Shown: positions 14,424 through 32,000, counted from the stretch's first letter. The stretch is DNA of 32,000 bases from Candidatus Saccharimonadota bacterium (GCA_026002795.1 BPGA01000001.1:60001-92000), one strand, 5' to 3'. Notes: generated by a model not told the origin, from the letters alone. Translations and numbers: made by a program.

Positions 14424-14429
14424 GAAATT

Positions 14430-14446: not shown

Positions 14447-14539
14447 TATCATAAAAAATTATTAAAAATTATTAAAAAAATGGGTAAAAAACTTAAAAGA
14501 GAAAAAGAGAGTAAAAATTTTTAATTTTTAAAGAATAAG

Positions 14540-17817: not shown

Positions 17818-19179
17818 TTATTTTGATTTTTTAGCTGTTATAACTCTAATATCATTTGCATGAGAGTTTGTGAAAATGAAAATTAAGTTATTGCTGTCTT
17901 CTAATAAAACATTAGTAATGTTGACACCAACTTGCGTTATGTATCTTCCGTTTTTAACTTTCATACCAGCTAAAATTTCGTAATCCTGCTCTTCTCCAAA
18001 GTTATAAACAACCTTTTCTTCTAAAGTTGCTGGATTTAACATATATATTTTTGTTGGGCTCACCCAATATAAAATAGGATAGTCCCATAATGGACTACTT
18101 GTATAAAATAGGTTTCCTATTGAATCTACTGCTAAAGAGGTTGGCAAATTAACGCTATCTTTTAAAACCTCAACTTTTTTGTTTGTAACTTTGTAAATTA
18201 CCTCTTTTAACATATCAGAAACATAAAAATCTATTCCTAAAACATTTTTTCCGTTTACAGAGTTTTCAACAATTTTTATTCTTTCATCAGCTAAAAAACC
18301 TCTAGAAAAAAGTCTTAAATCTTCTGTTGTTTTAGGATGTATTTCCTTCTCTGTTGGTAGTTCAAATTCTTGTGTTATTGTTTTTGTTGTAAGATCTATA
18401 GAAATAACTCTTTTTGGTCTTGTTATTGAAAAGTGTGGTATGTAATTAACCATGCTATCTAATTTCGCCCTCGGAGCTTGAGCTGCATAAATTTTTCCAT
18501 CTCTTGCAAAAATCATGTCTGTAATGCCAAATAATTCATTATTCTCCAGAAAAACGCTCGGACCATTCAAATCAATTTTAAAAAGTTTGTTTGAAGTATT
18601 GGCAGAGTAAAAAATACCTTTATTTGTGAATACAATATCTGAGATGTTGCCGATGGGTTGGAGAATACTATCTTGTCTAAGGTTAAAAGTACCGGTGGTA
18701 AAATCTGAGAAATAAGTTGAGAGTGGGAATTCTAGAATTTTATTAAGTGTAGGATTATTTGAGAGAAGGTCAACTGAACCTTGGAAAGAGTGTACTGCTG
18801 GGTTCAAAAATCCTTCTATTCTATTGGTTTCTTTGGAATGTTTAAACAAAGGTCCTGTTGAAAAAAGTGCTGTGTAATTAATTTGAGAAGCGTTTGAAGA
18901 GTTGTTGGTAGTTGAGTAATTATAGTTAGATTGGCCCAAAGTGTTTAGATTGAGATAGCTAGCAAGATTTAAGTTTTCTGTGCCATAAGAAAGACCTCCT
19001 GGATTTTCGAGATTTCGTTGAATTATTCTTTCTTGGACATTTGTTATTGTATATCCTGGGTTAAAATCAGGTTTGTCAGGACCAAAAATAAAATTGCAGC
19101 CAAGAACAAGTGCTGTTAAACCAGTTGTTAATGGTTTTAATGCTCTTGAAAGCGTGTTTTTTGTGTGTGATTTAAGCAT
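17818..19179 (-). CDS. predicted lipoprotein with beta-propeller-like (NHL/SMP-30-like) repeats
   Basis: N-terminal signal with the lipobox-like LVLGC. Recurrent blade-like segments (KGIFYSANTSNKLFKIDL, DGKIYAAQAP, IGNLFYTSSP). The fold assignment is tentative. Confidence 0.5.
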   Translation of the reverse strand: MLKSHTKNTLSRALKPLTTGLTALVLGCNFIFGPDKPDFNPGYTITNVQERIIQRNLENPGGLSYGTENLNLASYLNLNTLGQSNYNYSTTNNSSNASQINYTALFSTGPLFKHSKETNRIEGFLNPAVHSFQGSVDLLSNNPTLNKILEFPLSTYFSDFTTGTFNLRQDSILQPIGNISDIVFTNKGIFYSANTSNKLFKIDLNGPSVFLENNELFGITDMIFARDGKIYAAQAPRAKLDSMVNYIPHFSITRPKRVISIDLTTKTITQEFELPTEKEIHPKTTEDLRLFSRGFLADERIKIVENSVNGKNVLGIDFYVSDMLKEVIYKVTNKKVEVLKDSVNLPTSLAVDSIGNLFYTSSPLWDYPILYWVSPTKIYMLNPATLEEKVVYNFGEEQDYEILAGMKVKNGRYITQVGVNITNVLLEDSNNLIFIFTNSHANDIRVITAKKSK

Positions 19180-19378: not shown

Positions 19379-20749
19379 TTAAGTAATTTGCAGATCCAAG
19401 CAAGCTCTATAGGTCCTGTATTTTTGTGTTGACTCGCAAGATGCTTGATTATTAATTGATCCACAGTTAGCTCCTGTGTCAATTACAAGAGAATCTCCAG
19501 TAAATTCTCCTGGATCACAGTTAGGAACAGAATATCCTGGATCATAACAAATAGAAAGTCCAGTATCCCATAAACAATAATTTTGTAAGTTTTGCTTAAC
19601 TTCTAAGTTAATTGTTGCTCTTTTGTTGTCTGTTCCGAATGTTCCACTTCTTATGTTGTTTCCTGATATGATTGCGTTACCAGCTACCTCAAGTTTTTCT
19701 CCAGGATTCGTCGTGCCGATGCCGACGTAGCCGGTAGTCTTAATTACAAATTCTGGAGAGGTAAAACTGGAGTCTGTTGTTTTTCCTGTTCCAATAGCAA
19801 AGTCGCTGGTGCTATATACTGTACCAATTGACCAAGGGTAGTTTCCTGATCTAATTAGATTTATATATTGGCCGCTAGCTGCTGGTTTGGTTATTACAAG
19901 GTCACCATTATAACCATTGTCTGGACTAGAACTACTTGAAATAGTTACGCGTCCTCGAACATCCAACTTCTGGCTTGGCCCCGTCGTGCCTATGCCGACG
20001 TTGCCCATTATATATGAATTTCCTGTTCCGTCTATTTGCAGAACGCTAGAGGTTTTTACAACGTTAGCAGTGTCAAGCAACCTTGCCCAGCCCCCCCAGG
20101 AACCAGTAGTTTGACTATATCTGTGCCAAATATTTCCACTTGAACCAAATGCTAATTGATGAACTCCCCCACCACTCCAGTCTGTTCCAGAACTCCATTG
20201 TCTATAAGTTAGAAGCCCGCTGTAAGTTCCTTCACCAGAAAGTCCAATCACACTATTATATTTAAACTCAGGTACCACCCCCATATAATACTGCTCCGGA
20301 TTATAGTTATTGTTTCTTGTATCAGAACTTCCAAGCACTCCCATTAATACATTTCCTGTTAAAGGAGGCGAACCTACTCTTAAATTCCCGCCTTGTACAT
20401 CCAACTTTGCTCCCGGCCCCGTCGTCCCGATGCCGACGTTGCCGCTAACAAATAAATTTTGTCCACATGTATCGCAACCTATACGTACTCTACCAGAAGA
20501 TGCTCCGAGTACTAAATCATTACTAGCGCCCCCCGAATTAGTTTCTGCATAAAGACCTACATAGTTCCATGCAGTTCCGATTCTTAATCTACCTCTGCCG
20601 CTACCTACATCCTCATTTCCTTGAACGTGCATATTGTTTTCAACCCAGACATCAGTAGCATATATATTTGCACCAGCACCATTTACAGCAAGTTTTACTT
20701 GTGGATTCGTCGTCCCGATGCCGACGTTGCCGGCTTCTCGAATAACCAT
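19379..20749 (-). CDS. 3'-terminal segment of fibre gene B: GNVGIGTT-repeat protein with a Cys-rich C-terminal domain
   Basis: 456-aa ORF with four anchor motifs (19710, 19983, 20421, 20709) spaced in multiples of 3. The C-terminal ~70 aa carry 8 Cys. The annotated Met is internal: the same frame continues upstream through two TGA stops. Confidence 0.7.
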   Translation of the reverse strand: MVIREAGNVGIGTTNPQVKLAVNGAGANIYATDVWVENNMHVQGNEDVGSGRGRLRIGTAWNYVGLYAETNSGGASNDLVLGASSGRVRIGCDTCGQNLFVSGNVGIGTTGPGAKLDVQGGNLRVGSPPLTGNVLMGVLGSSDTRNNNYNPEQYYMGVVPEFKYNSVIGLSGEGTYSGLLTYRQWSSGTDWSGGGVHQLAFGSSGNIWHRYSQTTGSWGGWARLLDTANVVKTSSVLQIDGTGNSYIMGNVGIGTTGPSQKLDVRGRVTISSSSSPDNGYNGDLVITKPAASGQYINLIRSGNYPWSIGTVYSTSDFAIGTGKTTDSSFTSPEFVIKTTGYVGIGTTNPGEKLEVAGNAIISGNNIRSGTFGTDNKRATINLEVKQNLQNYCLWDTGLSICYDPGYSVPNCDPGEFTGDSLVIDTGANCGSINNQASCESTQKYRTYRACLDLQIT

Positions 20750-21132
20750 TGCCGGAGATGTATAACCTCATGTTGGTCCATTATTTACCCTGAACATGTT
20801 ACCGCCATTATCGCCTAAAGCTGATTTGTGGTTGCGTCATGACACATATCCGAAATTGTCAGTATCTGCAGAAAAACTGAAAGCAGGAGCAGCAGCTGTT
20901 CCATTAGCAGCCTGAATTACTCTTCCAGATGTTATTACTGTAGTACCTCCTATTTGTAAATTACCTGAGACTAAATTTAATGAATCACCACTTGCTAAAT
21001 CTAATGCTATTTGCAGCTCCTCTAAACAACTGGTACATCTGGATTAAAGTAAAGATTAGCTGTTGTATTTATTGAACCAATAACATCTAATGTTTGTTGT
21101 GGTGTTGTCGTCCCAATCCGACGTTGCCAGAG
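20750..21132 (-). pseudogene. disrupted fibre-gene segment linking ORF 21133..23682 to ORF 19379..20749
   Basis: Homologous to intact sequence at 29875..30123, but with +1 insertions near 21006 and 21034. There is a 1-nt deletion inside the anchor at 21107..21128. In-frame TGA stops lie at 20837..20839 and 20768..20770. Confidence 0.7.
20856..21106 (-). repeat. module R1, copy a
   Basis: Near-identical to 29875..30123 apart from point differences and two +1 insertions. Encodes ...TPQQTLDV.GSINTTANLYFNPDVQLFRGAANRLDLASGDSLNLVSGNLQIGGTTVITSGR... Confidence 0.85.
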
Positions 21133-21342
21133 TTATCTAATACCAACACATTGCCCAACCCACTCGACCAGTAACAATAAGTCACCTCCTGTTCCTGCTC
21201 CATGAAGTGTCTCATTAGCAGAAATGATGTCCCAAGCCCTATCACCGCTTCTCTCTATTCTCAGTCTACCGGCATTTCCATTTGAGTCGCCGAAGAGGTG
21301 GAATTGTACTCCTGGATTCGTCGTCCCGATGCCGACGTTGCC
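21129..21342 (-). repeat. module R4, copy a (214 bp)
   Basis: Identical to 31328..31540 except for one extra t at 21172. Similarity stops exactly at the outer ends of the anchors. Confidence 0.9.
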
Positions 21343-23682
21343 GTTTTCGTCGACAGCGACTGCTAAAAGATTTCCTTGTGTATTAGTTAGCGCATTCTTT
21401 AAAGTTCCTGTAGCAACAAAAGATCCATCAATTAAAAATCCTCTAATTTCACAGTGGGGTTGGTTTGCTGTATCATCAAGCAAACATTCAACTGCTTTGT
21501 CTAAAGTTTCTGTGTTGTTTGCTCCTTCAAATATTGCTGCATATGGTCTTCTTGAACCGCTATTAGGTGATAATTGTGCTTTGTATAATCCAAGTCTTCC
21601 AAATGCAGAATCTAAATTAGTAGTAACTGCGCTCTCCCATGCGTCATAAGATGTTAAAATTCCAATTTGGTCTTTTCTTAGGTTGTTTAATGCTGTTGCT
21701 AAATTATCTGACTGTGTGGAGTTTCCATAAGTATCATAAGTGTTGTCGGATACTATAGTGTGGTTTGCTTTCCATATAATCGTTAACCTAAGACCTCTTC
21801 CAGAAGTGTCATAAACTGTTGTATTGCCTATCTTTAAAACTCTGTTTGCATTATTGTTTAATCCAGTACCTCTTATATAAATTGGAACTATTTTCGATAT
21901 AACATTTGTTCCTAGTGAATTAATTTCACATGTTCCATCAGCATTACAAGCTAATGCATTGCTTGCTGTTCCGCTTAATGTTCCATAAATAGTTCCAGTA
22001 GCTCTAATATCTCCAGCAACATCCAATTTATAAGCCGGACTTGCTGTCCCGATGCCGACGTTGCCGCTAGTTATTCTCATTCTTTCAACATTGTTTGTGT
22101 ATATAGCCAAATTACCATCAGATATCCACTGAAGTCCTGTATCGCTATCTCCAACGGCAAGAGATATTACTGGCGAACCACCCAAACCACTTCCACCTCT
22201 TACAAAGAGATTATTGTTGATATTAACATTTCCAGCAACTTGCAATTTTTCAGAAGGTGCTGTCGTCCCGATGCCGACGTTGCCATTCCAATTTTTTATA
22301 TAAATTGTTCCGTATTCGTTGTCATCTGGTGAGACTTCACGTATCTCAGGATAAGCAAACTGTACTTTATCACCTGCAACACCTGAGTAACAATAACCAA
22401 AACGAATGATCGCGTAAGCTGCATTACTTGGCATCCTCCAATCAGTTCCTATGGTTTTACTGGATTGAACATCCGAAATCCCATCCGCATTCGCATCAGT
22501 CACATATGAAGGATCAAGAAATCCATTCACTTTTCTCCAATCGCTTGAAGTAGTGGTAGTAGCCCAGAAATAAGGATTGTCCCAGGCTCCTGTAATGCGA
22601 TTATTGTTACTATCATAAACATAAAATCCAAGATACTTATAGCCAGATGTTCCAACTGTTTGCCTCATCCAAACACTGAATTCATATTTTTTATTTGGGT
22701 CTATTTTTACTCTTTTTTGATAATACGCCCATTGATAACAGCTTCCTGAATTTCCATTAGAGGTGCTTTCAAGAGCTTTAATCTGGGAACCATCAGTAAA
22801 AGTTGTTGTGACAGTAGTGACACTACCCCATGCATCAGAATCTCCCAAGTTAGTAGATGATTCTAGGAGGTTTGCACCGGCAATATTTTTAGCAGCTACA
22901 CCTCCAGCAATTTCAAGTTTGACATTTGGCGCTGTCGTCCCGATGCCGACGTTGCCGAGGCTTGTTATTACCATTCTATCGTTCCAACCATCAGTCCCCC
23001 TTGTCGTAAAGTACAAATCACCATAAGAATTTACGTGGTCTGTAATTTTGCCAGAAACATAACCTATAATTCCATTTGCCCCAGCAAAAGCAAGGGATGC
23101 GAAATTTCCAGCTGTACTATTAGTGTTTCTTAATTCAAGCGAGTTGCCGGTGCCTCCTGTGCCAGTTGATGTTTGCGGATTGATTATTACCAAACCTCTT
23201 GCAGAAGCACCACCGGTAGATATACTTGCTGCATAGCCTCCAGTATTTCCAGCTACTACCGTTAGCTTTTCTCCCGGCGCCGTCGTCCCGATGCCGACGT
23301 TGCCTGTTGTTGTCAAAACTAACCCTGTGCCGGTTTGCGGATTTAATCTGAAATTACCTGTATCGTCGACTCCGGTCCAAAATTGACGCGATGTAGAATC
23401 ATACCACTCAATATAATTCCACTTGCTTGTTGGAGAATCTGTCTGTCGCAATCTCAGTATGTTATCCGCTGTGGAAGATATTTCCAGCGGCGATCCGGGT
23501 CCCGTCGTCCCGATGCCGACGTTGCCGCCAAGATAGATATTTGTAGTCCCACCAGGGATTGCTATGAGATCAACACCATTTCTGTTTGTTATATCAACAT
23601 CGTAAGTCGTACCGTTACCAGCAATCACAAGACCAGAACCAGAATTGTAATACATCACTCCTCCACTAAAAGCCCCGGCCAA
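21133..23682 (-). CDS. fibre gene B central segment: GNVGIGTT-repeat protein with CBM-like and ILEI/GG-lectin-like inserts
   Basis: 849-aa ORF with 6 anchors in frame (21320, 22043, 22262, 22934, 23282, 23504). The apparent TTG start is internal. The C-terminus is cut by a +1 insertion (extra t at 21172 relative to the copy at 31328..31540). Confidence 0.75.
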   Translation of the reverse strand: MAGAFSGGVMYYNSGSGLVIAGNGTTYDVDITNRNGVDLIAIPGGTTNIYLGGNVGIGTTGPGSPLEISSTADNILRLRQTDSPTSKWNYIEWYDSTSRQFWTGVDDTGNFRLNPQTGTGLVLTTTGNVGIGTTAPGEKLTVVAGNTGGYAASISTGGASARGLVIINPQTSTGTGGTGNSLELRNTNSTAGNFASLAFAGANGIIGYVSGKITDHVNSYGDLYFTTRGTDGWNDRMVITSLGNVGIGTTAPNVKLEIAGGVAAKNIAGANLLESSTNLGDSDAWGSVTTVTTTFTDGSQIKALESTSNGNSGSCYQWAYYQKRVKIDPNKKYEFSVWMRQTVGTSGYKYLGFYVYDSNNNRITGAWDNPYFWATTTTSSDWRKVNGFLDPSYVTDANADGISDVQSSKTIGTDWRMPSNAAYAIIRFGYCYSGVAGDKVQFAYPEIREVSPDDNEYGTIYIKNWNGNVGIGTTAPSEKLQVAGNVNINNNLFVRGGSGLGGSPVISLAVGDSDTGLQWISDGNLAIYTNNVERMRITSGNVGIGTASPAYKLDVAGDIRATGTIYGTLSGTASNALACNADGTCEINSLGTNVISKIVPIYIRGTGLNNNANRVLKIGNTTVYDTSGRGLRLTIIWKANHTIVSDNTYDTYGNSTQSDNLATALNNLRKDQIGILTSYDAWESAVTTNLDSAFGRLGLYKAQLSPNSGSRRPYAAIFEGANNTETLDKAVECLLDDTANQPHCEIRGFLIDGSFVATGTLKNALTNTQGNLLAVAVDENGNVGIGTTNPGVQFHLFGDSNGNAGRLRIERSGDRAWDIISANETLHGAGTGGDLLLLVEWVGQCVGIR

Positions 23683-24197
23683 CCTTGAGACGATGAAATT
23701 TTTAATCTTCCCGCAACTTCAAGTTTTTCATTCGGACTCGTCGTTCCAATGCCGACGTTGCCTGAAGTATCTATAATCATTCGCGTATTTCCCGTTTGTC
23801 TAAATTCTATCGGTTCATTTGCATTATCTAAAGTTTCAATAATTAATTTAGATAAACCAGTTCCATCTCCTGTTGATTCAAAACGTATACTTCCAGCATC
23901 AGTATTTGCATCCCATCTTAATCCATAATTATTGTCTATATGTATGTTGCCCCCAGAAACATGTAATTTTCCCGCGGGTCCCGTCGTCCCGATGCCGACG
24001 TTGCCAGCGTTAGTAATTTGAAATGCGTTCCATCCTGCGCCACTTGTCCAGAAACCGACATTTGCGCCATTCTGCCCGACAAACATAGTCTTACCATTAT
24101 CTAACCATACACCACCGTCTCCACCAGCGTCACCTGTATGAATACGACCGGAAACTCGTAAATCAACAGTAGTGCCACCCCCGCCAACTACATTCAA
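23655..24197 (-). CDS. fibre gene B fragment (GNVGIGTT repeats)
   Basis: 180-aa ORF with anchors at 23740 and 23983. It overlaps both neighbouring fragments out of frame, which implies frameshifts near 23.68-23.74 kb and inside the anchor at 24214. Confidence 0.65.
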   Translation of the reverse strand: MNVVGGGGTTVDLRVSGRIHTGDAGGDGGVWLDNGKTMFVGQNGANVGFWTSGAGWNAFQITNAGNVGIGTTGPAGKLHVSGGNIHIDNNYGLRWDANTDAGSIRFESTGDGTGLSKLIIETLDNANEPIEFRQTGNTRMIIDTSGNVGIGTTSPNEKLEVAGRLKISSSQGWPGLLVEE

Positions 24198-24774
24198 CTT
24201 TGCTCCAGGTGTCGTCGTGCCGATGCCGACGTCTGCCTGTATTGCTATTCACAAAAAGAGTATTTGTGTCAACTGTGAAATTCTGTCCAACAACAACATT
24301 ATTATTAAATGTCTTATCTCCTGCAAAAATCTGCGTTCCTGTAGAAACAACTCCTGATTGTGTTGAAGAAGCATCTCTTATTGTAACATTACTTGCGCTT
24401 GTAATTCTTCCTTGAGCATCAACTGTGAATCTTCCCACTACAATATCTCCGCCATAAGTTCCTGCTGTTACTCCTGTGTTTGAAAGAGAGAAGGTTACAT
24501 TTCCGCTGCCAACAAGTCTATCTGTCAGTGTTCCTGAAATTGACATGCCTGTTCCTTGGACAATAGATCCTTTAACAAAACCAGCGCTTGTGTTAACTTC
24601 CTGAAGCTGACTTAATGTTACAGCATCTTGTGCAGATGTTCCATTTGCAAGATTAATGATTTTGTTGTTGTCCATGTTTATTGTTCCGTTGAAAACAGCA
24701 GAACCATTTACATGGAGTTTTTGTTGTGGTGTTGTTGTTCCAATGCCGACATAGTTTGTGTTGGTAATTGTCAA
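24163..24774 (-). CDS. fibre gene B fragment carrying tail-fibre-like module R2a
   Basis: 203-aa ORF. VTAGTYGGDIVVGRFTVDAQGRITSASNVTI resembles motifs I recall from phage tail-fibre proteins. It terminates because the anchor at 24214..24237 has a 1-nt insertion (GTCTGCC instead of GTTGCC). Confidence 0.65.
   Translation of the reverse strand: MTITNTNYVGIGTTTPQQKLHVNGSAVFNGTINMDNNKIINLANGTSAQDAVTLSQLQEVNTSAGFVKGSIVQGTGMSISGTLTDRLVGSGNVTFSLSNTGVTAGTYGGDIVVGRFTVDAQGRITSASNVTIRDASSTQSGVVSTGTQIFAGDKTFNNNVVVGQNFTVDTNTLFVNSNTGRRRHRHDDTWSKVECSWRGWHYC
24238..24756 (-). repeat. module R2, copy a (519 bp)
   Basis: Anchor-to-anchor segment. Aligns without indels to 25142..25660, with scattered substitutions and one ~30-nt divergent patch. 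Its last 140 nt (24617..24756) recur at 29659..29798. Confidence 0.9.
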
Positions 24775-25118
24775 GAATCGTTACTCTTGACTTGTTCCTC
24801 CTCGCTGGAGCAATACGACCAATATCAAAGAGATCGTTGATAGAATCAAGCGTCAAAACCCAGGATGGACCATTTATGTCTCGCCTGCGTCGGTACTTGA
24901 TGAGATGCACTAAAACTAGTTTCAAGTTTGCCCCTAAGGCCACATTCTCGTCTTTCCCCAGCTGCAAGCAATATGTCAGTACCGATTCGTCGTTGAAAGC
25001 CGATTAGTAGCCGAGGAGTATTGGAATCTAATTCGTCCGCCATCGTAGCTCCGTTGCACCTGAAGCGGTGGCTCCCCCAATGCACCCGCTTGAATATCGA
25101 GTTTTGCCTGCCGGTGTT
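24757..25118 (-). pseudogene. GC-rich degraded module between the two R2 copies
   Basis: No single long frame. Three overlapping ORFs in different frames (24653..24967, 24768..25007, 24846..25085). Removing one A from the AAAA run just downstream of anchor 25119 gives PAGKLDIQAGALGEPPLQVQRSYDGGRIRFQYSSATNRLSTTNRY*. Confidence 0.55.
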
Positions 25119-25579
25119 GTCGTCCCGATGCCGACTCTATCTGTATTGCTGTTCACAAAAAGCGTATTTGTGTCAACTGTGAAATTCTGTCCAACAACAA
25201 CACTATTATTAAATGTCTTAGCTCCTGCAAAAGTCTGCGTTCCTGTAGAAACAACTCCTGATTGTGTTGCAGAAGCATCTCTTATTGTAACATTACTTGC
25301 GCTTGTAATTCTTCCTTGATTATCAACTGTGAATCTTCCCACTACAATATCTCCGCCATAAGTTCCTGCTGTTACTCCTGTGTTTGAAAGAGAGAAAGTT
25401 ACATTTCCGCTGCCAACAAGTCTATCTGTCAGTGTTCCTGAAATTGACATGCCTGTTCCTTGGACAATAGATCCTTTAACAAAACCAGCGCTTGTGTTAA
25501 CTTCCTGAAGCTGACTTAATGTTACAGCATCCTGAGGGTTTGTTGCATTAGCAAGGTTGATGATTTTGTTATTGTCCAT
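25028..25579 (-). CDS. fibre gene B fragment carrying module R2b
   Basis: 183-aa ORF nearly identical to 24163..24774 over R2. The frame stays open upstream of the annotated Met through the anchor at 25638. Confidence 0.65.
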   Translation of the reverse strand: MDNNKIINLANATNPQDAVTLSQLQEVNTSAGFVKGSIVQGTGMSISGTLTDRLVGSGNVTFSLSNTGVTAGTYGGDIVVGRFTVDNQGRITSASNVTIRDASATQSGVVSTGTQTFAGAKTFNNSVVVGQNFTVDTNTLFVNSNTDRVGIGTTTPAGKTRYSSGCIGGATASGATELRWRTN

Positions 25580-25660
25580 GTTTATTGTTCCGTTGAAAAC
25601 AGCAGAACCATTTACATGGAGTTTTTGTTGTGGTGTTGTTGTTCCAATGCCGACGTTGCC
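25142..25660 (-). repeat. module R2, copy b (519 bp)
   Basis: See R2a. The two copies are separated by the GC-rich segment 24757..25118 plus the anchor at 25119. Confidence 0.9.
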
Positions 25661-25738
25661 GCCTGCATCTATTCTAAACCTTTCACATACCTGCTGTTGA
25701 ACAATGCAAGCTGGTTTGTTGTTGGCAAAAACATTCCG

Positions 25739-25989
25739 TTGTCAGTATCTGCAGAAAAACTGAAAGCAGGAGCAGTCGCTGTCTCCATTAGCAGCCTGAA
25801 TTCATTCTTCCAGATGTTATTACTGTAGTACCTCCTATTTGTAAATTACCTGAAACTAAATTTAATGAATCACCAGTTGCTAAATCTAATCTATTTGCAG
25901 CTCCTCTAAACAACTGTACATCTGGATTAAAGTAAAGATTAGCTGTTGTATTTATTGAACCTACAACATCTAATGTTTGTTGTGGTGTT
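25739..25989 (-). repeat. module R1, copy b
   Basis: Near-identical to 29875..30123 with two +1 insertions. The homology extends over 25521..26012 versus 29659..30146. Confidence 0.85.
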
Positions 25990-26144
25990 GCTGTTCCAAT
26001 GCCGACTCTGCCTGAAGTATCATTAACAAACAAATCATTAGTAACATTAAGACTTAGTCCTCCTGTTCCGCTACCTTGTATTTCAAGTTTTGCACTCGGA
26101 CTCGTCGTCCCGATGCCGACGTTGCCGGAAGTTGTTAATCGCAT
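25788..26144 (-). CDS. fibre gene B fragment (modules R3a + R1b)
   Basis: 118-aa ORF with anchors at 26104 and 25990. It is truncated by +1 insertions in R1b relative to R1c. Confidence 0.6.
   Translation of the reverse strand: MRLTTSGNVGIGTTSPSAKLEIQGSGTGGLSLNVTNDLFVNDTSGRVGIGTATPQQTLDVVGSINTTANLYFNPDVQLFRGAANRLDLATGDSLNLVSGNLQIGGTTVITSGRMNSGC
26013..26126 (-). repeat. module R3, copy a (114 bp)
   Basis: Roughly 90% identical by eye to 31214..31327. Encodes .P.AKLEIQGSGTGGLSLNVTNDLFVNDTSG. Confidence 0.85.
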
Positions 26145-26619
26145 AACCTCTGTTCCAATACTAGTGCTTGAGCCTATAGCAAACCTTAGATCGTAAGGAG
26201 AACCAGTGAAGCCCGCCCTCCAAACACCACTGGCTTCAGATCCTTGCGACCAAGTAAGCCATGCTTGGTCAGCATCTAAAGTTTTGTAATTTTGCTAGCA
26301 ATAGATCTCGAACTACCTGCAGCTTCGCCCCCGGATTCGTCGTCCCGATGCCGACGTTGCCTGATGTTGTCATTCTTATTATCTTCAACTACCGTTTCCA
26401 AATGCTACACTGATTGTTTGACCACATACCTATTAATAACCTGTTCGCAACGTCATTCCCGTCCCTCCTGAGATCCTTGAATATTAGCTATCGATTATAA
26501 GCATATCTGGCTCTCCCATCCGAGTGAAGTTATTATACCAGCCATTAGCAACCACTAAGCATGTCTTGTCTGCTCCAGATCTATAGCAGTGATTCGTTCA
26601 CTTATAATATTCTCAGAGT
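26145..26619 (-). pseudogene. decayed fibre-gene remnant between the LamG gene and fibre gene B
   Basis: Contains a perfect anchor (26339..26361) and coding-like patches (e.g. MTTSGNVGIGTTNPGAKLQVV), but stops in all frames. Confidence 0.55.
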
Positions 26620-28260
26620 CTACCGATTCTCCTGAGGCAAGAGGTCGAATTGTACTCCTGGCCCCGTCGTCCCGATGCCGACGTTGCCGCCTGTAGTTAT
26701 GTGAACTAAGTTGTTAATATGTGTATTAACTTGATTATCATTGTTGATATAGAGATCATTTCCTATAGCTTGGATTTCGTTAGCATCAAGATGAATACCA
26801 GCTGTGCCCCCAGAGTTTAAAATTTGCAATACTCCAGATCCTACACCTGTATTTACATCACTATCAGACCTAAGCCTCACATCTCCGACTACTTCTAATT
26901 TTTCTGTTGGATTCGTCGTTCCAATGCCAACGTTGCCGTTAAATATAACATCCCTATTTGTTTTTAAGTTCATTGCTTGGAACCATTGAGATCCATTATA
27001 ATAACTAAAAATTAGTTGATCAGGTTCGCCACTATATTGACTCCCTCTCTTTGTTATAACCCAAAAAGCATTTGAACCGGATTCTCTAAATTCCATTTGA
27101 GGAGAGCTTGGACCTGTTGGAGAAGTGCCTTCTATTTTAATAATAGAGCTAACAACATGTAACTTCGCCCCCGGCGTCGTCGTCCCGATGCCGACGTTGC
27201 CGCTTGTTCCGTTGGCAAAGAAAAATACAGAATTGGTTGTATTCACAAGTCTAAATATATCTGAAGTAATTGTGTTTTGTTGAATGCCTCTTAAATACTG
27301 GAGTTTTATTTCTTCTTCACTTAAAGCTCTATCATAAACTCTTACCTCATCAATTACTCCTGAAAATGGTCTAGGATCTGTTGTTATCCAAATTCCGATA
27401 TTTAAATTTCCTGTTCCAAAATTTAAGTTGCCGCCAGAAAGTGTTCTAATTCCATCAAGAATTCCATTAAGATAAATCCTCATTTCAAATGTTGAATTGT
27501 CATAAGTTGCGGCAATATGATACCATCTGTTATTTGATAGTGTTGTGTTTGCAGAAAGTGTTTGTTGTGTTCCGTTGTTTATACTTAAAAATAATTTGTT
27601 GTTAAAAATTCTGAAGTAATTTGATGAAGGAGACTCTCTTCCAAAGATCATCTGATCATTTGAGACTGCTGTTGGGTATATCCAAGCTTCCCAGGTTAAT
27701 GATTTTGCGTTGTTTAGTGCTTGAGATGTCGTTACACTGACATAGCTTCCGTTATTTGATGCTAGTCTTGTAAAGTTTAAAGCAATTCCCATTTTTCCTG
27801 ATGTAAATGTTGGATTAATGCAAGAAGTTCCTACACAAGTAAGAGTACCGTCTGTGCCAAATGGACCTCTGTCATAAGTTAAGCTACCAGAACCTTCTGA
27901 AAAAGGTAGATAAAGCATTAAACCATCTGGAGTTGCATATCCTGGCTGGAATATTGTACTATTTGTTATAATGGTGCCACTTACATTAAGTAAACCCTCA
28001 ATATTTGTATTCCCAGAGGCATTAATATCCTTAACAAAAAGCGCTGTAATTCTATTGGTTAAACTTCCAAGAAAACCAAAAAAGCCGTAATTTGATGTTG
28101 AAACATTGCCTAGTACAGTAAGATTTCCTGTGTCTCCATGAATTCTTACAAGATCTGTTCCAGTTTGATTCTGGAACCTATAATCTCCTGCTGAAACAAA
28201 GTTTATGCTAGTTGCAATTAATAAAATTATTAAAATTTCCGCTAAATAACCTCTTTTCAT
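26620..28260 (-). CDS. secreted LamG/concanavalin-A-like lectin domain protein with C-terminal GNVGIGTT repeats
   Basis: Signal peptide MKRGYLAEILIILLIATSINFVSA. LamG-like core (LYLPFSEGSG...ALNF...SLTWEAWIYPT...WYHIAATYD...IYLNGILDG...GVIDEVRVYDRALSEEEI). Three anchors (27179, 26915, 26666). It ends 12 codons into a module that is much longer in the other copies. Confidence 0.8.
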   Translation of the reverse strand: MKRGYLAEILIILLIATSINFVSAGDYRFQNQTGTDLVRIHGDTGNLTVLGNVSTSNYGFFGFLGSLTNRITALFVKDINASGNTNIEGLLNVSGTIITNSTIFQPGYATPDGLMLYLPFSEGSGSLTYDRGPFGTDGTLTCVGTSCINPTFTSGKMGIALNFTRLASNNGSYVSVTTSQALNNAKSLTWEAWIYPTAVSNDQMIFGRESPSSNYFRIFNNKLFLSINNGTQQTLSANTTLSNNRWYHIAATYDNSTFEMRIYLNGILDGIRTLSGGNLNFGTGNLNIGIWITTDPRPFSGVIDEVRVYDRALSEEEIKLQYLRGIQQNTITSDIFRLVNTTNSVFFFANGTSGNVGIGTTTPGAKLHVVSSIIKIEGTSPTGPSSPQMEFRESGSNAFWVITKRGSQYSGEPDQLIFSYYNGSQWFQAMNLKTNRDVIFNGNVGIGTTNPTEKLEVVGDVRLRSDSDVNTGVGSGVLQILNSGGTAGIHLDANEIQAIGNDLYINNDNQVNTHINNLVHITTGGNVGIGTTGPGVQFDLLPQENR

Positions 28261-28655
28261 TTTAATTTTTTCTCGACAAATTTAATTAACATGTCTATGA
28301 TTTTCTTAATGTCATTTTCGTTGTTTACCAAAAAATCCTCGGTAATTTTTTTGCCATAGTAGACAATATCATTCCTAAACTTCCTTAGATTATCAATAAG
28401 TTTTGCATAAGAATCATCAATTTCATAATTCTCAACAAAATAATCTAATAATTTCACATGACTAAGTGTTTTATATCCATCAGAATACATAACTGCTGTC
28501 AATAATTCTTTAATTATTTCATAGTATTCTTCAATAAACTTGTAAGGCTTATCTCTTGGAAGAATTTTTATGATTTCTAATCTATCCTTTGCCATTTTAA
28601 ATAAGTCTTTAGCTCTTTCTTTATCTTTTGAAATTTTGAATATCTCTTTCATCAC
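28257..28655 (-). CDS. HEPN-domain protein (putative toxin partner of the MNT)
   Basis: 132-aa all-helical ORF. LRKFRNDIVYYG sits where the HEPN R-x4-6-H motif belongs, but with Tyr in place of His. Its stop overlaps the LamG gene start (ATGA), and its start overlaps the MNT stop. Confidence 0.6.
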   Translation of the reverse strand: MMKEIFKISKDKERAKDLFKMAKDRLEIIKILPRDKPYKFIEEYYEIIKELLTAVMYSDGYKTLSHVKLLDYFVENYEIDDSYAKLIDNLRKFRNDIVYYGKKITEDFLVNNENDIKKIIDMLIKFVEKKLK

Positions 28656-29230
28656 AAACCTCCGTAAAGCACTAAACCATTCTTTATTTTTTTTTGAATA
28701 TTCTTATCTAGCTTAGAAAAATCATCTAGGATAATCACTCTAATTCTTCTTTTTAAAACACTTTCAAATTTGGAAAAATCAATCTCTTTCTTTATTTTAG
28801 AAACAACAAAAAAATCAATATCGCTTGATTCTACATCCTCTCCTCTTAAATAAGATCCAAATAAGATTATTGCTTTTGGATGAAGCTCATTAATAATTTT
28901 GTCTCTTAATTCCTTCAAAGAAAGAATGTTATAAGACATTTTTAACCATATAAAAGAGTCATTTTCTCTATTAGCGACATATCCGTCAAACGGCTTAGAT
29001 TTCCTCTTAATTATAAGCCCTTTCTTAGTTAGTTCTCTTATATAGTTTCTAACAGAAGGGTGTGCTAATTTTATCTTTTTACTTATCTCTTTTATGAAAT
29101 GTATTGTAGTTGGCTCTCTAAAGAACACCTCTAAAACCCGGATATAGCTACATTTAACCATATGGTATAATAATGTACCCTTTGGTATATAAATATTCCC
29201 TTTGGCTATTTTAACTTTATTGAATTCCAT
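28652..29230 (-). CDS. winged-HTH + minimal nucleotidyltransferase (MNT, NTP_transf_2-like)
   Basis: LFGSYLRGEDVESSDIDFFVV is the GS-x-n-DxD Pol-beta-type NTase signature. The N-terminal SVRNYIRELTKKGLIIKR looks like a wHTH. The start lies 1 nt after the stop of fibre gene A. Confidence 0.75.
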   Translation of the reverse strand: MEFNKVKIAKGNIYIPKGTLLYHMVKCSYIRVLEVFFREPTTIHFIKEISKKIKLAHPSVRNYIRELTKKGLIIKRKSKPFDGYVANRENDSFIWLKMSYNILSLKELRDKIINELHPKAIILFGSYLRGEDVESSDIDFFVVSKIKKEIDFSKFESVLKRRIRVIILDDFSKLDKNIQKKIKNGLVLYGGL

Positions 29231-29231
29231 T

Positions 29232-30632
29232 TTATATTCTAAATATCATATCACCTCCTTGAGTAAAAACACGGGCTGAACCTATGAACATTGTTTGAGT
29301 AACATTCGCATCACCAACAACATTTAGAGTGTTTTGTGGAGTGCTTGTGTTTATGCCAAGTCTTTCTGTTGTATTGTTCCAGAATAGTTTAGCATTATTT
29401 TGGCTTAAAACACCGTTAGCTCCTGCAAAAATTAAAGAGCCTTGATTAAAGCTTGAAAGTGTTAATCCTGCAAATGTTGGACTTGATGTTGTGTTTATGT
29501 CTTGTGGAAGGCTAAATGTCCATTGCCTATTTTGAGTTAAATCTTGAGGCCCTGTTGGTGTTACTGAAATTTGATTTGCTGTTCCAATCATCTCAAGTGT
29601 TCTTGATTGTGGAACTGCGTTTGTTGCAGTTGAGTTTACTGATTGCAATTGTGAAAGTGTTACAGCATCTTGTGCAGATGTTCCATTTGCAAGATTAATG
29701 ATTTTGTTGTTGTCCATGTTTATTGTTCCGTTGAAAACAGCAGAACCATTTACATGGAGTTTTTGTTGTGGTGTTGTTGTAGCAATGCCGACGTTGCCGC
29801 TACTGTCTATTCTTACTCTTTCTAAACCTGCTGTTGAAAATGCAAGCTGATTTGTTGTTGGTATGAACATTCCGTTGTCAGTATCTGCAGAAAAACTGAA
29901 AGCAGGAGCAGCAGCTGTTCCATTAGCAGCCTGAATTACTCTTCCAGATGTTATTACTGTAGTACCTCCTATTTGTAAATTACCTGAGACTAAATTTAAT
30001 GAATCACCGCTTGCTAAATCTAATCTATTTGCAGCTCCTCTAAACAACTGTACATCTGGATTAAAGTAAAGATTAGCTGTTGTATTTATTGAACCAACAA
30101 CATCTAATGTTTGTTGTGGTGTTGTTGTTCCAATGCCGACTCTGCCTGTGTTTCCTACAAAAGTTACAAACTCTGAATTAGAATCATTTAAAAAGGCTAA
30201 CCTATAATCTCCTGCACCAGAATTCCAGTTAACAATGTTCCTTAATTTTATATCTCTTGTTGCCTGAACAACTCCTCCAGCACTTACGTTGCTGTCATAT
30301 TTTCCTCTGAAAATCACATCAGGAGAGTCTGAACTTGAATTATCTGCTACATCGTTTGCAAGTGCTATAGCACTTCTTGAAAATAAGATATCACGCCACC
30401 TATAACTAGAATTTCCTAAATCAAAACTATTATCTAAATCAGGAATTAAGCTTCCATTAATTTCTAAGTTATTAACTTGAAGTGCAGAAATATTAACAAA
30501 ATAACCTGTTCTGAGCATAAATATCCCCACCAATAATTGAAAGCCCACCATTCTGCCAACCACCATTAAAATCAAAATTGCCATATACAGATGTGTTAAG
30601 TGGCATGAAAAAGCTAGAGTCATAACCATCAA
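29232..30632 (-). CDS. fibre gene A, 3' segment (modules R1c, R2-like N-part, unique tail-fibre-like C-terminus)
   Basis: 466-aa ORF. The first ~45 aa are out-of-frame read-through: the true frame joins ORF 30493..31089 via a 1-nt indel near 30509 (...GGDIYAQ|TGYFVNISALQVNNLEINGS). Anchors at 30124 and 29776. Confidence 0.7.
   Translation of the reverse strand: MMVMTLAFSCHLTHLYMAILILMVVGRMVGFQLLVGIFMLRTGYFVNISALQVNNLEINGSLIPDLDNSFDLGNSSYRWRDILFSRSAIALANDVADNSSSDSPDVIFRGKYDSNVSAGGVVQATRDIKLRNIVNWNSGAGDYRLAFLNDSNSEFVTFVGNTGRVGIGTTTPQQTLDVVGSINTTANLYFNPDVQLFRGAANRLDLASGDSLNLVSGNLQIGGTTVITSGRVIQAANGTAAAPAFSFSADTDNGMFIPTTNQLAFSTAGLERVRIDSSGNVGIATTTPQQKLHVNGSAVFNGTINMDNNKIINLANGTSAQDAVTLSQLQSVNSTATNAVPQSRTLEMIGTANQISVTPTGPQDLTQNRQWTFSLPQDINTTSSPTFAGLTLSSFNQGSLIFAGANGVLSQNNAKLFWNNTTERLGINTSTPQNTLNVVGDANVTQTMFIGSARVFTQGGDMIFRI
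29875..30123 (-). repeat. module R1, copy c (intact frame)
   Basis: Reference copy, in frame within ORF 29232..30632. Confidence 0.85.
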
Positions 30633-31089
30633 GTTTGTCTGCGTTTACATTAGTTAAGCCAGAACCATTTCCTGAAAAAGTTCCATAAATTGTTCCTGTT
30701 GCATTAATGTCACCTATAACATTCAACTTATTTGCAGGTGTTGTCGTTCCGATGCCGACGTTGCCTGTGTTTGAATTTACAAACAAAACATTAGAGCCTA
30801 CTGTGAGGTTGTTGTTAATAACTGCATTGTTTCTTATTGTTGTTGTTCCTGAAGAAGCTCCAAGTCTTAAGGTTGTTGCAGCTCCACCAATGTCAAGAGT
30901 TGTTGCAGTTGTATTTATTAAAGCGAAAGTTGTTGATGGTGTTGTTATATTTGAAATTATTGATGGACTTGTTAATGTTGGTGTGTTATTAAAAACAAGA
31001 GCTCCAGAACCTGTTTCATCTGTTACAGACAGAAGCAACATTAGCAGAAGAAATTGTAGAAACAAGATTTGAAGAAGAATCTGTTGCAA
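30493..31089 (-). CDS. fibre gene A, middle segment
   Basis: 198-aa ORF. Contains NVNADKLDGYDSSFF (a tail-fibre-like motif) and the anchor at 30743. It overlaps both neighbours out of frame. Confidence 0.65.
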   Translation of the reverse strand: MQQILLQILFLQFLLLMLLLSVTDETGSGALVFNNTPTLTSPSIISNITTPSTTFALINTTATTLDIGGAATTLRLGASSGTTTIRNNAVINNNLTVGSNVLFVNSNTGNVGIGTTTPANKLNVIGDINATGTIYGTFSGNGSGLTNVNADKLDGYDSSFFMPLNTSVYGNFDFNGGWQNGGLSIIGGDIYAQNRLFC

Positions 31090-32000
31090 CCAACCTATTT
31101 GCTGTTAATCCTGAAATTCTTGCGTTTGTTCCATAAATTGTTCCTGTTGCATTAATGTCACCAACAACATTCAACTTATTTGAAGGTGTTGTTGTTCCAA
31201 TACCAACATTACCTGAAGTGTCATTAACAAACAAATCATTAGTAACATTAAGACTTAGTCCTCCTGTTCCGCTACCTTGTATTTCAAGTTTTGCCCCCGG
31301 CGCCGTCGTTCCAATGCCGACGTTGCCAGAGTTATCTAATACCAACACATTGCCCAACCCACTCGACCAGAACAATAAGTCACCTCCTGTTCCTGCTCCA
31401 TGAAGTGTCTCATTAGCAGAAATGATGTCCCAAGCCCTATCACCGCTTCTCTCTATTCTCAGTCTACCGGCATTTCCATTTGAGTCGCCGAAGAGGTGGA
31501 ATTGTACTCCTGGATTCGTCGTCCCGATGCCGACGTTGCCAGTGCTGGTTATTGCCATCATGTCCCCTGGTCCCGGCGTCCATAACCTTGCTACATTCCC
31601 TATGCTATACCAGACATATTTTTGACCCGCTCCTGCACTAACATTTGGAGTAAATCCTCGGTCGTAGAACGATAGAGATGCGCCGGTTCCTGCGGATGAA
31701 ATTTCACCACCCTGATTGATATTTCCAGATATAATAGCTCCAGTGGCATCAGCAACGATAGCACCTACAACGTGAAGTTTAGTTTCAGGATTCGTCGTCC
31801 CGATGCCGACGTTGCCTGGTATTATCATTCCATCGCTTGGCGGCACAGTTCCTGCATATGAACCAACTGAGAGACCTCCTGTTGCTCCTGATACCGCATA
31901 AATACCTAACTTTCTGTTGCCGTTTATCCACACTGCGAGCGGATCGCCTGTATTTGCATTCTCAAAAACTAAATGGGCATTGTCTGTAGTGTCTTGGTCA
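31016..32000 (-). CDS. fibre gene A, 5'-ward segment (partial, runs off the window)
   Basis: The ORF-track entry 31016..31933 starts at an internal GTG. I translated 31934..31999 in the same frame (DQDTTDNAHLVFENANTGDPLA) and found no stop. Anchors at 31794, 31518, 31305, 31191. Confidence 0.7.
   Translation of the reverse strand, partial: DQDTTDNAHLVFENANTGDPLAVWINGNRKLGIYAVSGATGGLSVGSYAGTVPPSDGMIIPGNVGIGTTNPETKLHVVGAIVADATGAIISGNINQGGEISSAGTGASLSFYDRGFTPNVSAGAGQKYVWYSIGNVARLWTPGPGDMMAITSTGNVGIGTTNPGVQFHLFGDSNGNAGRLRIERSGDRAWDIISANETLHGAGTGGDLLFWSSGLGNVLVLDNSGNVGIGTTAPGAKLEIQGSGTGGLSLNVTNDLFVNDTSGNVGIGTTTPSNKLNVVGDINATGTIYGTNARISGLTANRLVATDSSSNLVSTISSANVASVCNR
31214..31327 (-). repeat. module R3, copy b (114 bp)
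   Basis: See R3a. The flanking modules differ between the two copies. Confidence 0.85.
31328..31540 (-). repeat. module R4, copy b (213 bp, intact frame)
   Basis: See R4a. Encodes NPGVQFHLFGDSNGNAGRLRIERSGDRAWDIISANETLHGAGTGGDLLFWSSGLGNVLVLDNS. Confidence 0.9.

Follow-up and report, generated by a model that had tools for sequence, protein, structure and literature searches.

What keeps a short run of DNA identical, synonymous positions included, in gene modules whose flanking sequences are unrelated? The question is posed by a fibre-gene locus in the window analysed here, a stretch of 32,000 nucleotides (32 kb) from a Pacearchaeota genome assembly. An exact-match scan of the window finds 14 copies of GTCGTCCCGATGCCGACGTTGCC, all on the plus strand and spanning positions 20421 to 31816, where shuffled sequences contain none; in the coding sense, on the minus strand, the word reads GGC AAC GTC GGC ATC GGG ACG AC. 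A six-frame scan finds 27 peptide blocks of the form G/D-N/R/Y-V-G-I-G/A-T-T/A, all on the minus strand, and three degenerate blocks (21107-21128, 24214-24237 and 24733-24756) bring the total to about 30, the whole set being confined to 19.7-31.8 kb. The original prediction of some 30 copies in one orientation, 14 of them identical, is borne out by these scans, as is the existence of near-copies at one to three mismatches, although these number eight and not about ten; the resulting 22 copies within three mismatches all lie on one strand, in direct orientation and within coding sequence.

The locus, whose features are all on the minus strand, begins at its low-coordinate end with a 456-aa fibre ORF (19379-20749) of four modules and a Cys-rich C-terminal tip to which the domain search assigns no family; mismatch and peptide scans place variants with two mismatches at 19710-19732 (GYVGIGTT) and 19983-20005, and 23-mer and peptide scans place exact cores at 20421-20443 (GNVGIGTT) and 20709-20731. 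Next to it lies a frameshifted fragment (20750-21132), 94% paralogous to 29844-30152, in which the degenerate core at 21107-21128, with a 1-nt deletion, forms the junction of segments like those at 313xx and 301xx. An 849-aa fibre ORF (21133-23682), with CBM_4_9 and ILEI-like matches in the domain search and 100% identity to KatS3mg001_094 in the protein search, carries exact cores at 21320-21342, 22262-22284, 22934-22956, 23282-23304 and 23504-23526 and a two-mismatch variant, GNVGIGTA, at 22043-22065. Fibre-gene fragments with changing frames and single-base indels occupy 23655-26619; their paralogues, at 92-99%, are the stretch at 29.2-31.5 kb and the gene of a circular element described below. 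Here the scans find exact cores at 23983-24005, 26104-26126 and, in a short broken reading frame, 26339-26361, together with variants at 23740-23762 (ATT GGA, type II), 25119-25141 (DRVGIGTT), 25638-25660 (three mismatches) and 25990-26012 (GRVGIGTA), while paralogue comparison adds the copies at 24214-24237, with a frameshifting 1-nt insertion, and 24733-24756 (NYVGIGTT). The fibre modules of a 546-aa ORF (26620-28260) come after a signal peptide and a Laminin_G_3 domain, with exact cores at 26666-26688, in the last module, and at 27179-27201, from which a GC-rich tract runs on downstream (ACG CCG GGG GCG AAG), and a three-mismatch variant at 26915-26937; among the fibre ORFs of the window it alone has a clear N-terminus. 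One or more upstream fibre genes, in three overlapping frames with YadA_stalk-like segments (29232-31999), run off the window end and hold exact cores at 31518-31540 and 31794-31816 and variants at 29776-29798 (GNVGIATT), 30124-30146 (GRVGIGTT), 30743-30765 (one mismatch) and 31305-31327 (two mismatches). The peptide scan and codon table also give a wholly AT-ending spelling at 31191-31213 (GGT AAT GTT GGT ATT GGA ACA AC), each third base of which is the transition partner of the base in the core. About 12 frame breaks are counted in the locus, and the frame-broken fragments at 20750-21132 and 23655-26619, which may be plain pseudogenes, sit downstream of the sole signal-peptide ORF.

At the protein level the repeat has a ready structural counterpart. 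The 849-aa ORF matches solved Bdellovibrio MAT fibres (8OND_A, Bd2133, E 2.5e-8; 8OML_A, E 1.8e-5; 8ON4_A, E 0.016), and the 27 copies extend into V-G-I-G-T-T-x-P-x-x-K-L, with Pro+9 in 27/27 and Leu+13 in 23/27, close to the consensus V-G-G/N-pi-x-x-P-x-x-x-L of the capping loop on beta-helix edges (Caulton et al., 2024, PMC10769870). Judged from such matches, the repeated peptide is the predicted capping loop of MAT/S74-type trimeric beta-helix fibres, present once per module. The Peptidase_S74 domain itself gave no match in a domain search of the window's ORFs; P0006, the intact gene of the circular element, scores 22.0 bits for S74, which equals the cut-off, and PF13884 is present in many homologues.

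Protein-level selection is, as originally argued, insufficient for identity at synonymous sites. Motif codons have a GC3 of 0.79; for the 3306 remaining codons of the fibre ORFs the value is 0.24, and for 5327 codons from other genes it is 0.17. The genome at large does not use these GC-ending codons, and non-motif codon usage predicts the exact spelling at a rate of about 1.7e-7 per site. The description of the fibre genes as AT-rich overall does not hold, since their GC content is 0.36-0.45 as against 0.22-0.33 elsewhere, a consequence of amino-acid composition (fibre GC12 0.46); they are AT-rich at third positions only. From codon -2 to codon +8 GC3 runs 0.26, 0.52, 0.93, 0.85, 0.93, 0.96, 0.67, 0.67, 0.78, 0.63 and 0.26, and in the window it is raised solely in an island with sharp edges, from the third base of codon -1, a variable residue whose GC3 of 0.52 places it in the island too, through codon +7. 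The start of the core is conserved most, the first 14 nt being GGCAACGTCGGCAT, with GGC in 25/26 copies at Gly0, GTC in 25/27 at Val2 and GGC in 26/27 at Gly3. The same modules supply an internal control: invariant Pro+9 is spelled by four codons and Leu+13 by six, Val+15 is GTA or GTT only, and Gly+17 is mostly GGT or GGA. DNA identity in the flanks of the 14 exact copies is 0.28, the random level.

The cores are also where related sequences part company. Paralogous segments of 90-100% identity within the locus end on cores: 21173-21342 and 31371-31540 are 100% identical over 170 nt and end exactly at a core, the copy at 21320-21342 forming the upstream end in the coding sense and that at 31518-31540 being its partner; a 98.7% block (31305-31540 with 21107-21342) ends at the variant at 31305-31327 and a 95% block (24199-24750 with 25103-25654) at that at 24733-24756; and the variants at 25990-26012 and 30124-30146 lie at ends of paralogous blocks. 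The same sample yielded a 19-kb circular element (L104/L356) with a fibre gene that shares segments of 98.9-99.6% identity with the window, and 6/6 segment ends lie in cores. The mosaic structure of that gene combines segments 25660-25119 (98.9%, ending at the variant at 25638-25660) and 23756-23507 (99.6%, ending at the exact core at 23504-23526) of the window, joined inside a core, and its crossover in L104, whose parents are the variants at 23740-23762 and 25119-25141, maps to the shared ATGCCGAC. The alternative anchor-to-anchor joins that had been anticipated were thus found in a related replicon, and not from reads. Across other lineages, 112/287 ends of intra-locus blocks at least 85% identical fall within 10 nt of a motif block where 29.5 would be expected, in a count whose ends are not independent and which is heterogeneous (0/27 in L107 and 0/20 in L198). 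As read from these alignments, the junctions at cores are historical.

It is clear that the word is not a peculiarity of DPANN archaea, as had been supposed. Over 120 genome stretches contain the exact core, as do over 120 from viruses, and the 225 loci with the 23-mer, their flanks unrelated, belong to CPR bacteria, DPANN archaea, other bacteria, phages and giant viruses. In an unbiased scan of metagenome contigs the 23-mer is the top DNA spelling of the motif, at 31/198 sites against 0.07 expected and in 13/120 loci of the sample; in an unbiased viral sample 39 sites lie within two mismatches where 1.75 are expected. Among 32 all-GC decoys it comes first for the viral sample and either first or second for the metagenome one, and choices at GC-rich sites run about 80:20 at Val, Gly6 and Thr7, with AT-rich sites near 50:50 for Y/R. 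AT-rich loci of other lineages have the same island shape at exact cores, with a slight shoulder at -2 and others across +9 to +12. In very AT-rich lineages the GC spelling is not kept (motif GC3 0.23), so any force must be weak or lineage-dependent. The protein motif is independent of the DNA spelling: phage loci that are very AT-rich retain the peptide but write it in AT form, and some of them are homogenised to a variant of their own (6/12 identical in L312, for example).

The most plausible explanation, to which we would give a probability of roughly 0.6, is that the 23-mer is an in-frame recombination anchor, itself homogenised by recombination. The motif is the only contiguous nucleotide identity among unrelated modules and stands in constant codon phase, which is what would make it an anchor of homology that preserves the frame. 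If strands were exchanged, or a template switched, at a pair of cores, the left-hand portion of one module array would become joined to the right-hand portion of a second, and modules and tips would be duplicated, deleted or swapped with the reading frame intact. These events, along with aborted ones leaving just a short conversion patch, would hold the cores within a genome identical even as flanks diverge. The outcome would be concerted evolution limited to an island of 24-26 nt, on the assumption that conversion can act on tracts of only about 25 nt. The identity of the cores would then be owed to conversion and not to direct selection; direct selection on the nucleotide word for some other function is conceivable as well. 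The GC-rich spelling may prevail through GC-biased repair of heteroduplexes, or because the more stable 23-bp duplex recombines better, but independent GC-biased conversion alone cannot pick the same one of 32 all-GC spellings, a point that weighs against this reading, as do the AT spelling of very AT-rich lineages and the uneven junction count among lineages. Exchange between replicons, such as the archaeal chromosome and the 19-kb element, might couple the cores of many lineages into one pool, and a shared pool would make the same spelling commonest in bacteria, archaea and viruses.

A more far-reaching proposal, which we hold only tentatively and think rather doubtful, is that the word acts across domains as a 'universal adapter', preserved by second-order selection or by a self-reinforcing recombination drive, with the frame-broken fragments forming a cassette archive that trades modules with the fibre gene of the 19-kb element, which would probably be a plasmid or virus of this archaeon. 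Recent import from GC-richer donors, whereby horizontally acquired copies would simply be awaiting decay and no homogenising or selective force would act on the core, is unlikely. The overdispersed count of GC third positions per site resembles a decay series and fits the entry of whole cores followed by AT-biased decay; some copies have a longer GC-rich tract (CCG GGG GCG AAG), and 99% identical modules are common to another replicon. Yet the flanks of the 14 exact copies are host-like, with AT-ending codons, and of random-level identity, so whole modules were not recently imported, and to import an identical patch of 23 nt 14 separate times would in itself take recombination at the core. Most exact cores moreover have flanks with a GC3 of 0.3-0.5, GC-rich surroundings being rare for them, and to our knowledge GGG and ACG are not the usual picks of high-GC genomes.

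Slightly less likely again is a dedicated enzyme, whether site-specific recombinase, homing-type nuclease or retroelement, that recognises the word and, by cutting or pairing the cores, drives the exchange of cassettes. Such an enzyme would suit the block-like island, a conservation specific to sequence and not merely to GC (the word ranks first or second among the 32 all-GC decoys) and the serine recombinase encoded by the module-sharing 19-kb element. Against it, recombinase, nuclease and reverse transcriptase are all absent from the 32-kb window, where only a sub-threshold HTH_7 match (6122-6682) was found; the copies are all direct and inside coding sequence; conservation falls gradually, with shoulders, from 93-96% in the first four codons to 63-78% in the last four, unlike a fixed site; and homogenised cores occur in AT-spelled lineages too. 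The unknown enzyme of the original prediction accordingly loses ground, the more so as we know of no such enzyme, nor of any neighbouring gene, common to the bacteria, archaea, phages and giant viruses that carry the word. A shufflon-like system fares similarly, with no recombinase gene next to the array in the 32-kb window and no inverted sites, all 22 near-copies being on one strand.

Selection on translation or mRNA, through rare or accurate codons pacing a critical loop or through a CGUCG/CGACG hairpin in mRNA or ssDNA, is improbable and largely refuted. In its favour, G34 anticodons are a perfect match for GGC, AAC, GTC and ATC, which all end in C, the core could fold into a hairpin of 5 bp at -6 kcal/mol, and the AT spelling retains both third-position pairs as U-A. 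At 10-50 nt downstream, the equally conserved codons for Pro, Leu, Val and Gly are nevertheless ordinary and AT-ending, the invariant Val+15 (GTA/GTT only) and Gly+17 (GGT/GGA) making opposite choices in the same modules, which largely rules out translational selection; one word serves contigs of 34 to 66% GC with differing codon rarity, the hairpin z-score is -1.05, complementarity (9/21 and 6/24) is not above unpaired controls (9/24 and 9/18, one site per locus), and no Rfam family matches at the core. The least probable explanation is that assembly or consensus collapsed or homogenised a repetitive locus with about 12 frame breaks, because the contig was assembled by metaFlye from PacBio HiFi reads (N50 10.5 kb, >Q20) long enough to cover many modules, unique flanks let reads place each core, and the multi-copy word recurs in hundreds of independent assemblies, short-read, long-read and one complete chromosome.

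The recombination anchor that we favour has instructive parallels. In T-even tail-fibre adhesins, recombination occurs between conserved motifs, which are the His boxes in gp37 and the glycine-rich motifs in gp38 (Tetart et al., 1996, 1998, as summarised in PMC3157838). There, by that summary, short conserved motifs part variable segments of a host-recognition fibre and allow in-frame shuffling, and recombination at the cores can be likened to it by analogy: identical cores likewise separate segments with 0.28 identity in their flanks, and junctions lie within or next to the motifs. The T-even case is limited to one phage group with genes similar overall, whereas the present anchor is repeated some 30 times along a series of tandem modules, and is carried by a cellular chromosome as well as by a small circular element. 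We know of no report for T-even phages of synonymous-site identity against codon bias, or of one nucleotide word across bacteria, archaea and viruses. The fibres of Bdellovibrio MAT and S74 phages are the same kind of protein, by the 8OND match and the fit to the capping-loop consensus, and tip swapping has been inferred in MAT fibre evolution (PMC10769870); that paper deals with proteins and structures, 'nucleotide' being absent from its text and 'recombin' confined to the methods, and in the present case the fibre genes belong to a DPANN archaeon and to a 19-kb element that is uncharacterised.

Surface-protein variation from silent cassettes offers a second comparison, as in the Neisseria pilE/pilS minicassettes, Borrelia vlsE with its 17-bp repeats and the Mycoplasma MgPa repeats. 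Recombination at short identity blocks is reported for var genes of AT-rich Plasmodium (PMC4270465). Such systems likewise place surface-protein genes beside arrays of partial, frame-broken copies, with short conserved DNA as the homology for segmental exchange; they are further marked by asymmetry of expression site and donor, by switching and by unidirectional conversion, while the broken copies here may be no more than pseudogenes. Botstein's modular theory of phage evolution reportedly invoked short homologous linkers between modules, and here too short DNA shared at module boundaries would permit exchange of unrelated sequences; his linkers lie between genes, however, and those here lie inside coding sequence, in phase, and encode a structural loop. 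Later work on such linkers mostly favoured illegitimate recombination plus selection. Lassalle et al. are said to have described GC-biased gene conversion in prokaryotes in 2015, a process that raises GC3 locally at recombination sites against AT-biased mutation pressure. GC3 at this locus is raised only in the recombining tract, with the same shape elsewhere, but the process is described for genes and genomes, not for a 25-nt island, and predicts no single spelling among 32 equally GC-rich ones.

What sets the word apart from the T-even case, so far as we know, is its identity at synonymous sites and the spread of one spelling across bacteria, archaea and viruses. Were the word indeed a universal adapter, it would let unrelated bacteria, archaea and viruses swap fibre modules in frame, and the locus would represent programmed variation of surface or attachment in a DPANN archaeon.

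The GC-rich word GTCGTCCCGATGCCGACGTTGCC is the antisense of GGC AAC GTC GGC ATC GGG ACG AC, which encodes the peptide GNVGIGTT on the minus strand, and it occurs in the window in 14 exact copies, all on the + strand from 20421 to 31816, where chance predicts none. A six-frame scan of the window recovers 27 GNVGIGTT-type peptide blocks and 3 further degenerate ones (two with a single-base indel, one reading NYVGIGTT), which bears out the original count of about 30 peptide copies with 14 identical 23-mers. Near-copies differing at 1-3 nt had also been noted; these are present but fewer than the ten or so proposed, the 22 copies within 3 mismatches including the 14 exact ones. Tandem Repeats Finder detects no array within the fibre locus, the modules being too diverged, and an Rfam search of the window returns two tRNAs and nothing else. 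A single copy, at 31191-31213, is wholly AT-ending (GGT AAT GTT GGT ATT GGA ACA ACA); all its third bases are transition partners of those in the core, from which it departs at eight sites, five of them changes of CpG to TpG/CpA. Long antisense ORFs run through cores on the + strand (for example 21224-21649, 30707-31072 and 23383-23688), all of them containing VVPMPTLP, and look like by-products of stop-poor antisense frames in Gly/Thr-rich repeats, not genes.

The third-position GC content (GC3) of the motif codons is 0.79, as against 0.24 for the remainder of the fibre ORFs and 0.17 for other genes in the window, and GC-ending codons are thus not general there. The contrast drawn earlier between these codons and AT-rich fibre genes is accurate at third positions, but the fibre genes are GC-higher overall, a rise that stems from codon positions 1 and 2. 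Among the window modules Gly0, the first motif codon, is GGC in 25 of 26 cases, Val2 is GTC in 25 of 27 and Gly3 is GGC in 26 of 27. In the same modules the invariant Pro nine codons downstream of the motif is written with four different codons and Leu+13 with six, while Val+15 uses GTA or GTT only and Gly+17 is GGT or GGA in most copies. Because these conserved residues are spelled ordinarily, selection on the translation of such residues is not the cause, and the argument that protein-level selection is insufficient to account for synonymous identity stands. Pure codon usage is ruled out by nulls from in-frame flanks. Flanks of the 14 exact copies share an identity of 0.28, the random level, so that synonymous sites have had time to diverge and the modules are old. 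The GC-rich island begins at the third base of codon -1, a variable codon (GC3 0.52), and extends through codon +7; it is strongest across GGCAACGTCGGCAT.

By sequence, the fibre proteins of the window are of the type represented by the mosaic adhesive trimer (MAT) fibres of Bdellovibrio and the Peptidase_S74-type (S74) fibres of phages. An 849-aa ORF matches the solved Bdellovibrio MAT fibres 8OND, 8OML and 8ON4, and the window repeat V-G-I-G-T-T-x-P-x-x-K-L fits the capping-loop consensus V-G-G/N-pi-x-x-P-x-x-x-L described on trimeric beta-helix edges and common to S74 phage fibres (Caulton et al., PMC10769870). The same 849-aa ORF is 100% identical to KatS3mg001_094 from a Candidatus Pacearchaeota MAG (535-kb contig); exact-protein look-ups for two window proteins gave no match. 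Laminin_G_3, CBM_4_9 and YadA_stalk-like segments are further domains of the fibre ORFs, and the module also occurs in proteins annotated as tail fibres in cultured Synechococcus, Pelagibacter and Thermus phages. The amino-acid conservation of the motif is structural. It is also independent of the DNA spelling, since phage loci of very high AT content encode the conserved peptide in AT-ending codons.

Junctions between paralogous segments fall at the cores. The stretches 21173-21342 and 31371-31540 are 100% identical across 170 nt, with the match ending exactly on a core; longer blocks run from core to core (21107-21342/31305-31540 at 98.7%, 24199-24750/25103-25654 at 95%), several further intra-locus blocks have one end on a core, and at 21107-21128 segments like those at 313xx and 301xx meet within the core. 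In other lineages, 112 of 287 high-identity intra-locus block ends fall no more than 10 nt from a motif block, versus 29.5 expected, although the loci are heterogeneous and the ends non-independent. A second type of junction was also observed, in which three paralogous blocks start at one shared point (24616, 25520 and 29658) directly after a YadA_stalk/T7-tail-fibre-like segment, NNKIINLANG..DAVTLSQLQ; given this common start, another conserved motif may also serve as a joining point.

A second replicon from the same sample carries related junctions. Contig_18595 (BPJI01000003.1; recovered as loci L104 and L356) is 38.5 kb long and was assigned to the bin 'Candidatus Parcubacteria KatS3mg096'. 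It consists of two head-to-tail copies of a 19,261-bp unit, 99.97% identical to each other, and so represents a small circular element. It is 30% GC, encodes a serine recombinase and for the most part orphan ORFs, and its proteins received no functional call against PHROGs. Its fibre gene is intact (1005 aa, six GC-rich cores, a Peptidase_S74 score at threshold) and forms a mosaic that combines window 25660-25119 (98.9%) with 23756-23507 (99.6%, twice). All six ends of the segments shared between element and window lie in cores, and in the nucleotide alignment the crossover is a switch within a shared ATGCCGAC inside the core. With junctions in cores both within the locus and against a second replicon, the proposal that the cores act as recombination anchors is supported. 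Element and window have nothing in common beyond the fibre modules, and integration of the 19-kb element into the chromosome is rejected on that ground. The circular unit and its 99% identical fibre modules make a virus or plasmid associated with the Pacearchaeota archaeon a likelier identity for the element than a piece of a bacterial genome.

The chromosomal locus lies among archaeal housekeeping genes (diphthamide synthase, Lhr helicase, class II ribonucleotide reductase, ScpA, ribosomal protein S24e, Rpo7). Only three long fibre ORFs appear intact, at 26620-28260 (with a signal peptide), 21133-23682 and 19379-20749; the coding sequence hops between frames at 20750-21132 and 23655-26619 and in parts of 29232-31999. 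Some dozen frame breaks occur, all within the fibre locus, and nearby housekeeping genes of 866 and 876 aa are unbroken. Relative to paralogues and the intact gene of the element, single-base indels are seen, two of them inside cores. The source assembly was built with metaFlye from PacBio HiFi reads (N50 10.5 kb) of 52 C hot-spring sediment (PMC9671151). One break lies in a C run (C3 to C2) and most fall outside homopolymers, so that HiFi homopolymer error was rejected as their origin and most of the indels are probably real. Recent pseudogene fragments are the likelier reading of the broken stretches, a cassette archive the more speculative one. Between the two fibre clusters, at 28257-29230, a 192-aa nucleotidyltransferase (Polbeta/NTP_transf_2, winged-helix N-terminus) overlaps a 132-aa partner without a family match, and the two resemble a toxin-antitoxin pair of MNT/HEPN type. 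A Cys-rich tip domain without a family match closes the last fibre ORF (19379-19700), and a 453-aa protein with a lipoprotein-like N-terminus adjoining the locus (17818-19179) likewise has no family match. Within 13989-17170 a class II-type ribonucleotide reductase that contains a TSCPD domain has immediately upstream of it an NrdR-like repressor combining a Zn ribbon with an ATP-cone, here in a DPANN archaeon.

The word is no peculiarity of DPANN-type archaea; its scope proves much wider, spanning bacteria, archaea, phages and giant viruses. The exact 23-mer is found in at least 120 stretches of the genome collection and at least 120 of the viral collection. Genome matches listed include many classes of Patescibacteria, Woese-, Pace- and Aenigmatarchaeota, methanogens, Bdellovibrionales, Elusimicrobia, Acidobacteria, Planctomycetes and others, and viral matches listed include giant-virus bins. 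Flank GC3 at exact-word loci among these matches is mostly 0.2-0.5, not high GC. Homogenised arrays occur elsewhere, with exact copies making up 16 of 24 at locus L023, 15 of 17 at L146 and 7 of 10 at L118. As these collection-wide counts are lower bounds, occurrence was also expressed as proportions in unbiased samples, drawn against ascertainment bias with the fully degenerate pattern GGNAAYGTNGGNATHGGNACNAC and with expectations derived from flank codon usage. Among the matches listed, 244 sites in viral contigs included 5 exact words (0.01 expected) and 39 within 2 mismatches (1.75 expected), the word ranking first among 32 all-GC spellings; 198 sites at 120 loci in metagenome contigs included 31 exact words (0.07 expected) and 70 within 2 mismatches (5.5 expected). 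The exact word was the commonest spelling in the metagenome sample (13 loci versus 5 for the next variant), on 13 contigs ranging from 34 to 66% GC. Where exact cores of other lineages sit in AT-rich loci, codon -1 has a GC3 of 0.62-0.69 and codon +7 one of 0.83-0.85, both positions lying outside the selection for exact cores; GC3 reaches background by codon +8 with small shoulders, a pattern as in the window. Three viral contigs with very AT-rich phage loci (L312, L262 and L268) are homogenised to AT spellings of their own, for example GGTAATGTTGGTATAGGTACAAC in 6 of 12 copies at L312; the GC-rich word is thus not required for homogenisation.

The fibre genes therefore hold an in-phase island of nucleotide identity with junctions inside it, both within one genome and between two replicons, and other lineages show the pattern too. 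The likeliest mechanism is that cores exchange by homologous pairing or template switching over about 8-25 nt, which would shuffle modules in frame, and that the same exchange, abortive events with short patches included, would homogenise the cores. GC third positions per site are overdispersed, with both extremes in excess, a distribution consistent with cores that enter whole and are then eroded by AT-biased mutation. GC-biased heteroduplex repair fits in part, accounting for the island and its shoulders but not for why a single one of 32 spellings prevails. Nor is it likely that GC-biased conversion, acting independently in each lineage, could alone account for the shared spelling, since the choice of C versus G at GC-rich sites is far more uniform than that of T versus A at AT-rich sites. 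It is plausible that the GC spelling prevails through greater duplex stability of the anchor, or through positive frequency dependence in a shared pool.

Recent import with no force maintaining the core is improbable, the flanks being unrelated and host-like. That the word is the site of a dedicated enzyme is slightly less probable again: the window offers no candidate gene, the copies are all in direct orientation, conservation falls off gradually along the core, and the word occurs across domains and in viruses. Selection through translation or RNA structure is very unlikely, given that Val+15 and Gly+17, the internal controls, are spelled unlike Val2 and Gly0/3; a hairpin in RNA or DNA fares no better, with the core at -6 kcal/mol (z -1.05) and flanks inconsistent, and apparent U-A/C-G covariation (9/21 and 6/24) is equalled by non-pairing controls when one site per locus is sampled. 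An assembly artefact is scarcely credible, as the identity survives in an assembly with HiFi reads behind it and the word recurs in hundreds of independent assemblies. Exchange at the cores remains the preferred reading.

Host-recognition fibres are the fastest-shuffling genes in phages, predators and episymbionts, and the in-frame joining of unrelated modules has been debated since the modular theory of phage evolution. In the literature searched, no description was found of a nucleotide-level island held against codon bias, of such an island repeated about 30 times per locus, or of one such island being identical in bacteria, archaea, phages and giant viruses; the peptide string was not found there, and the MAT paper (PMC10769870) does not discuss the DNA. 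The finding is a concrete, countable DNA element, 23 nt long, that overrides codon bias, marks real junctions and is common to different domains and viruses, and the linker idea is now testable as a result. In practical terms it is a marker for fibre genes and module boundaries in CPR, DPANN and viral dark matter, and a natural design rule for chimeric-fibre engineering. It also ties a DPANN chromosome to a small circular element that had been binned with a bacterium.
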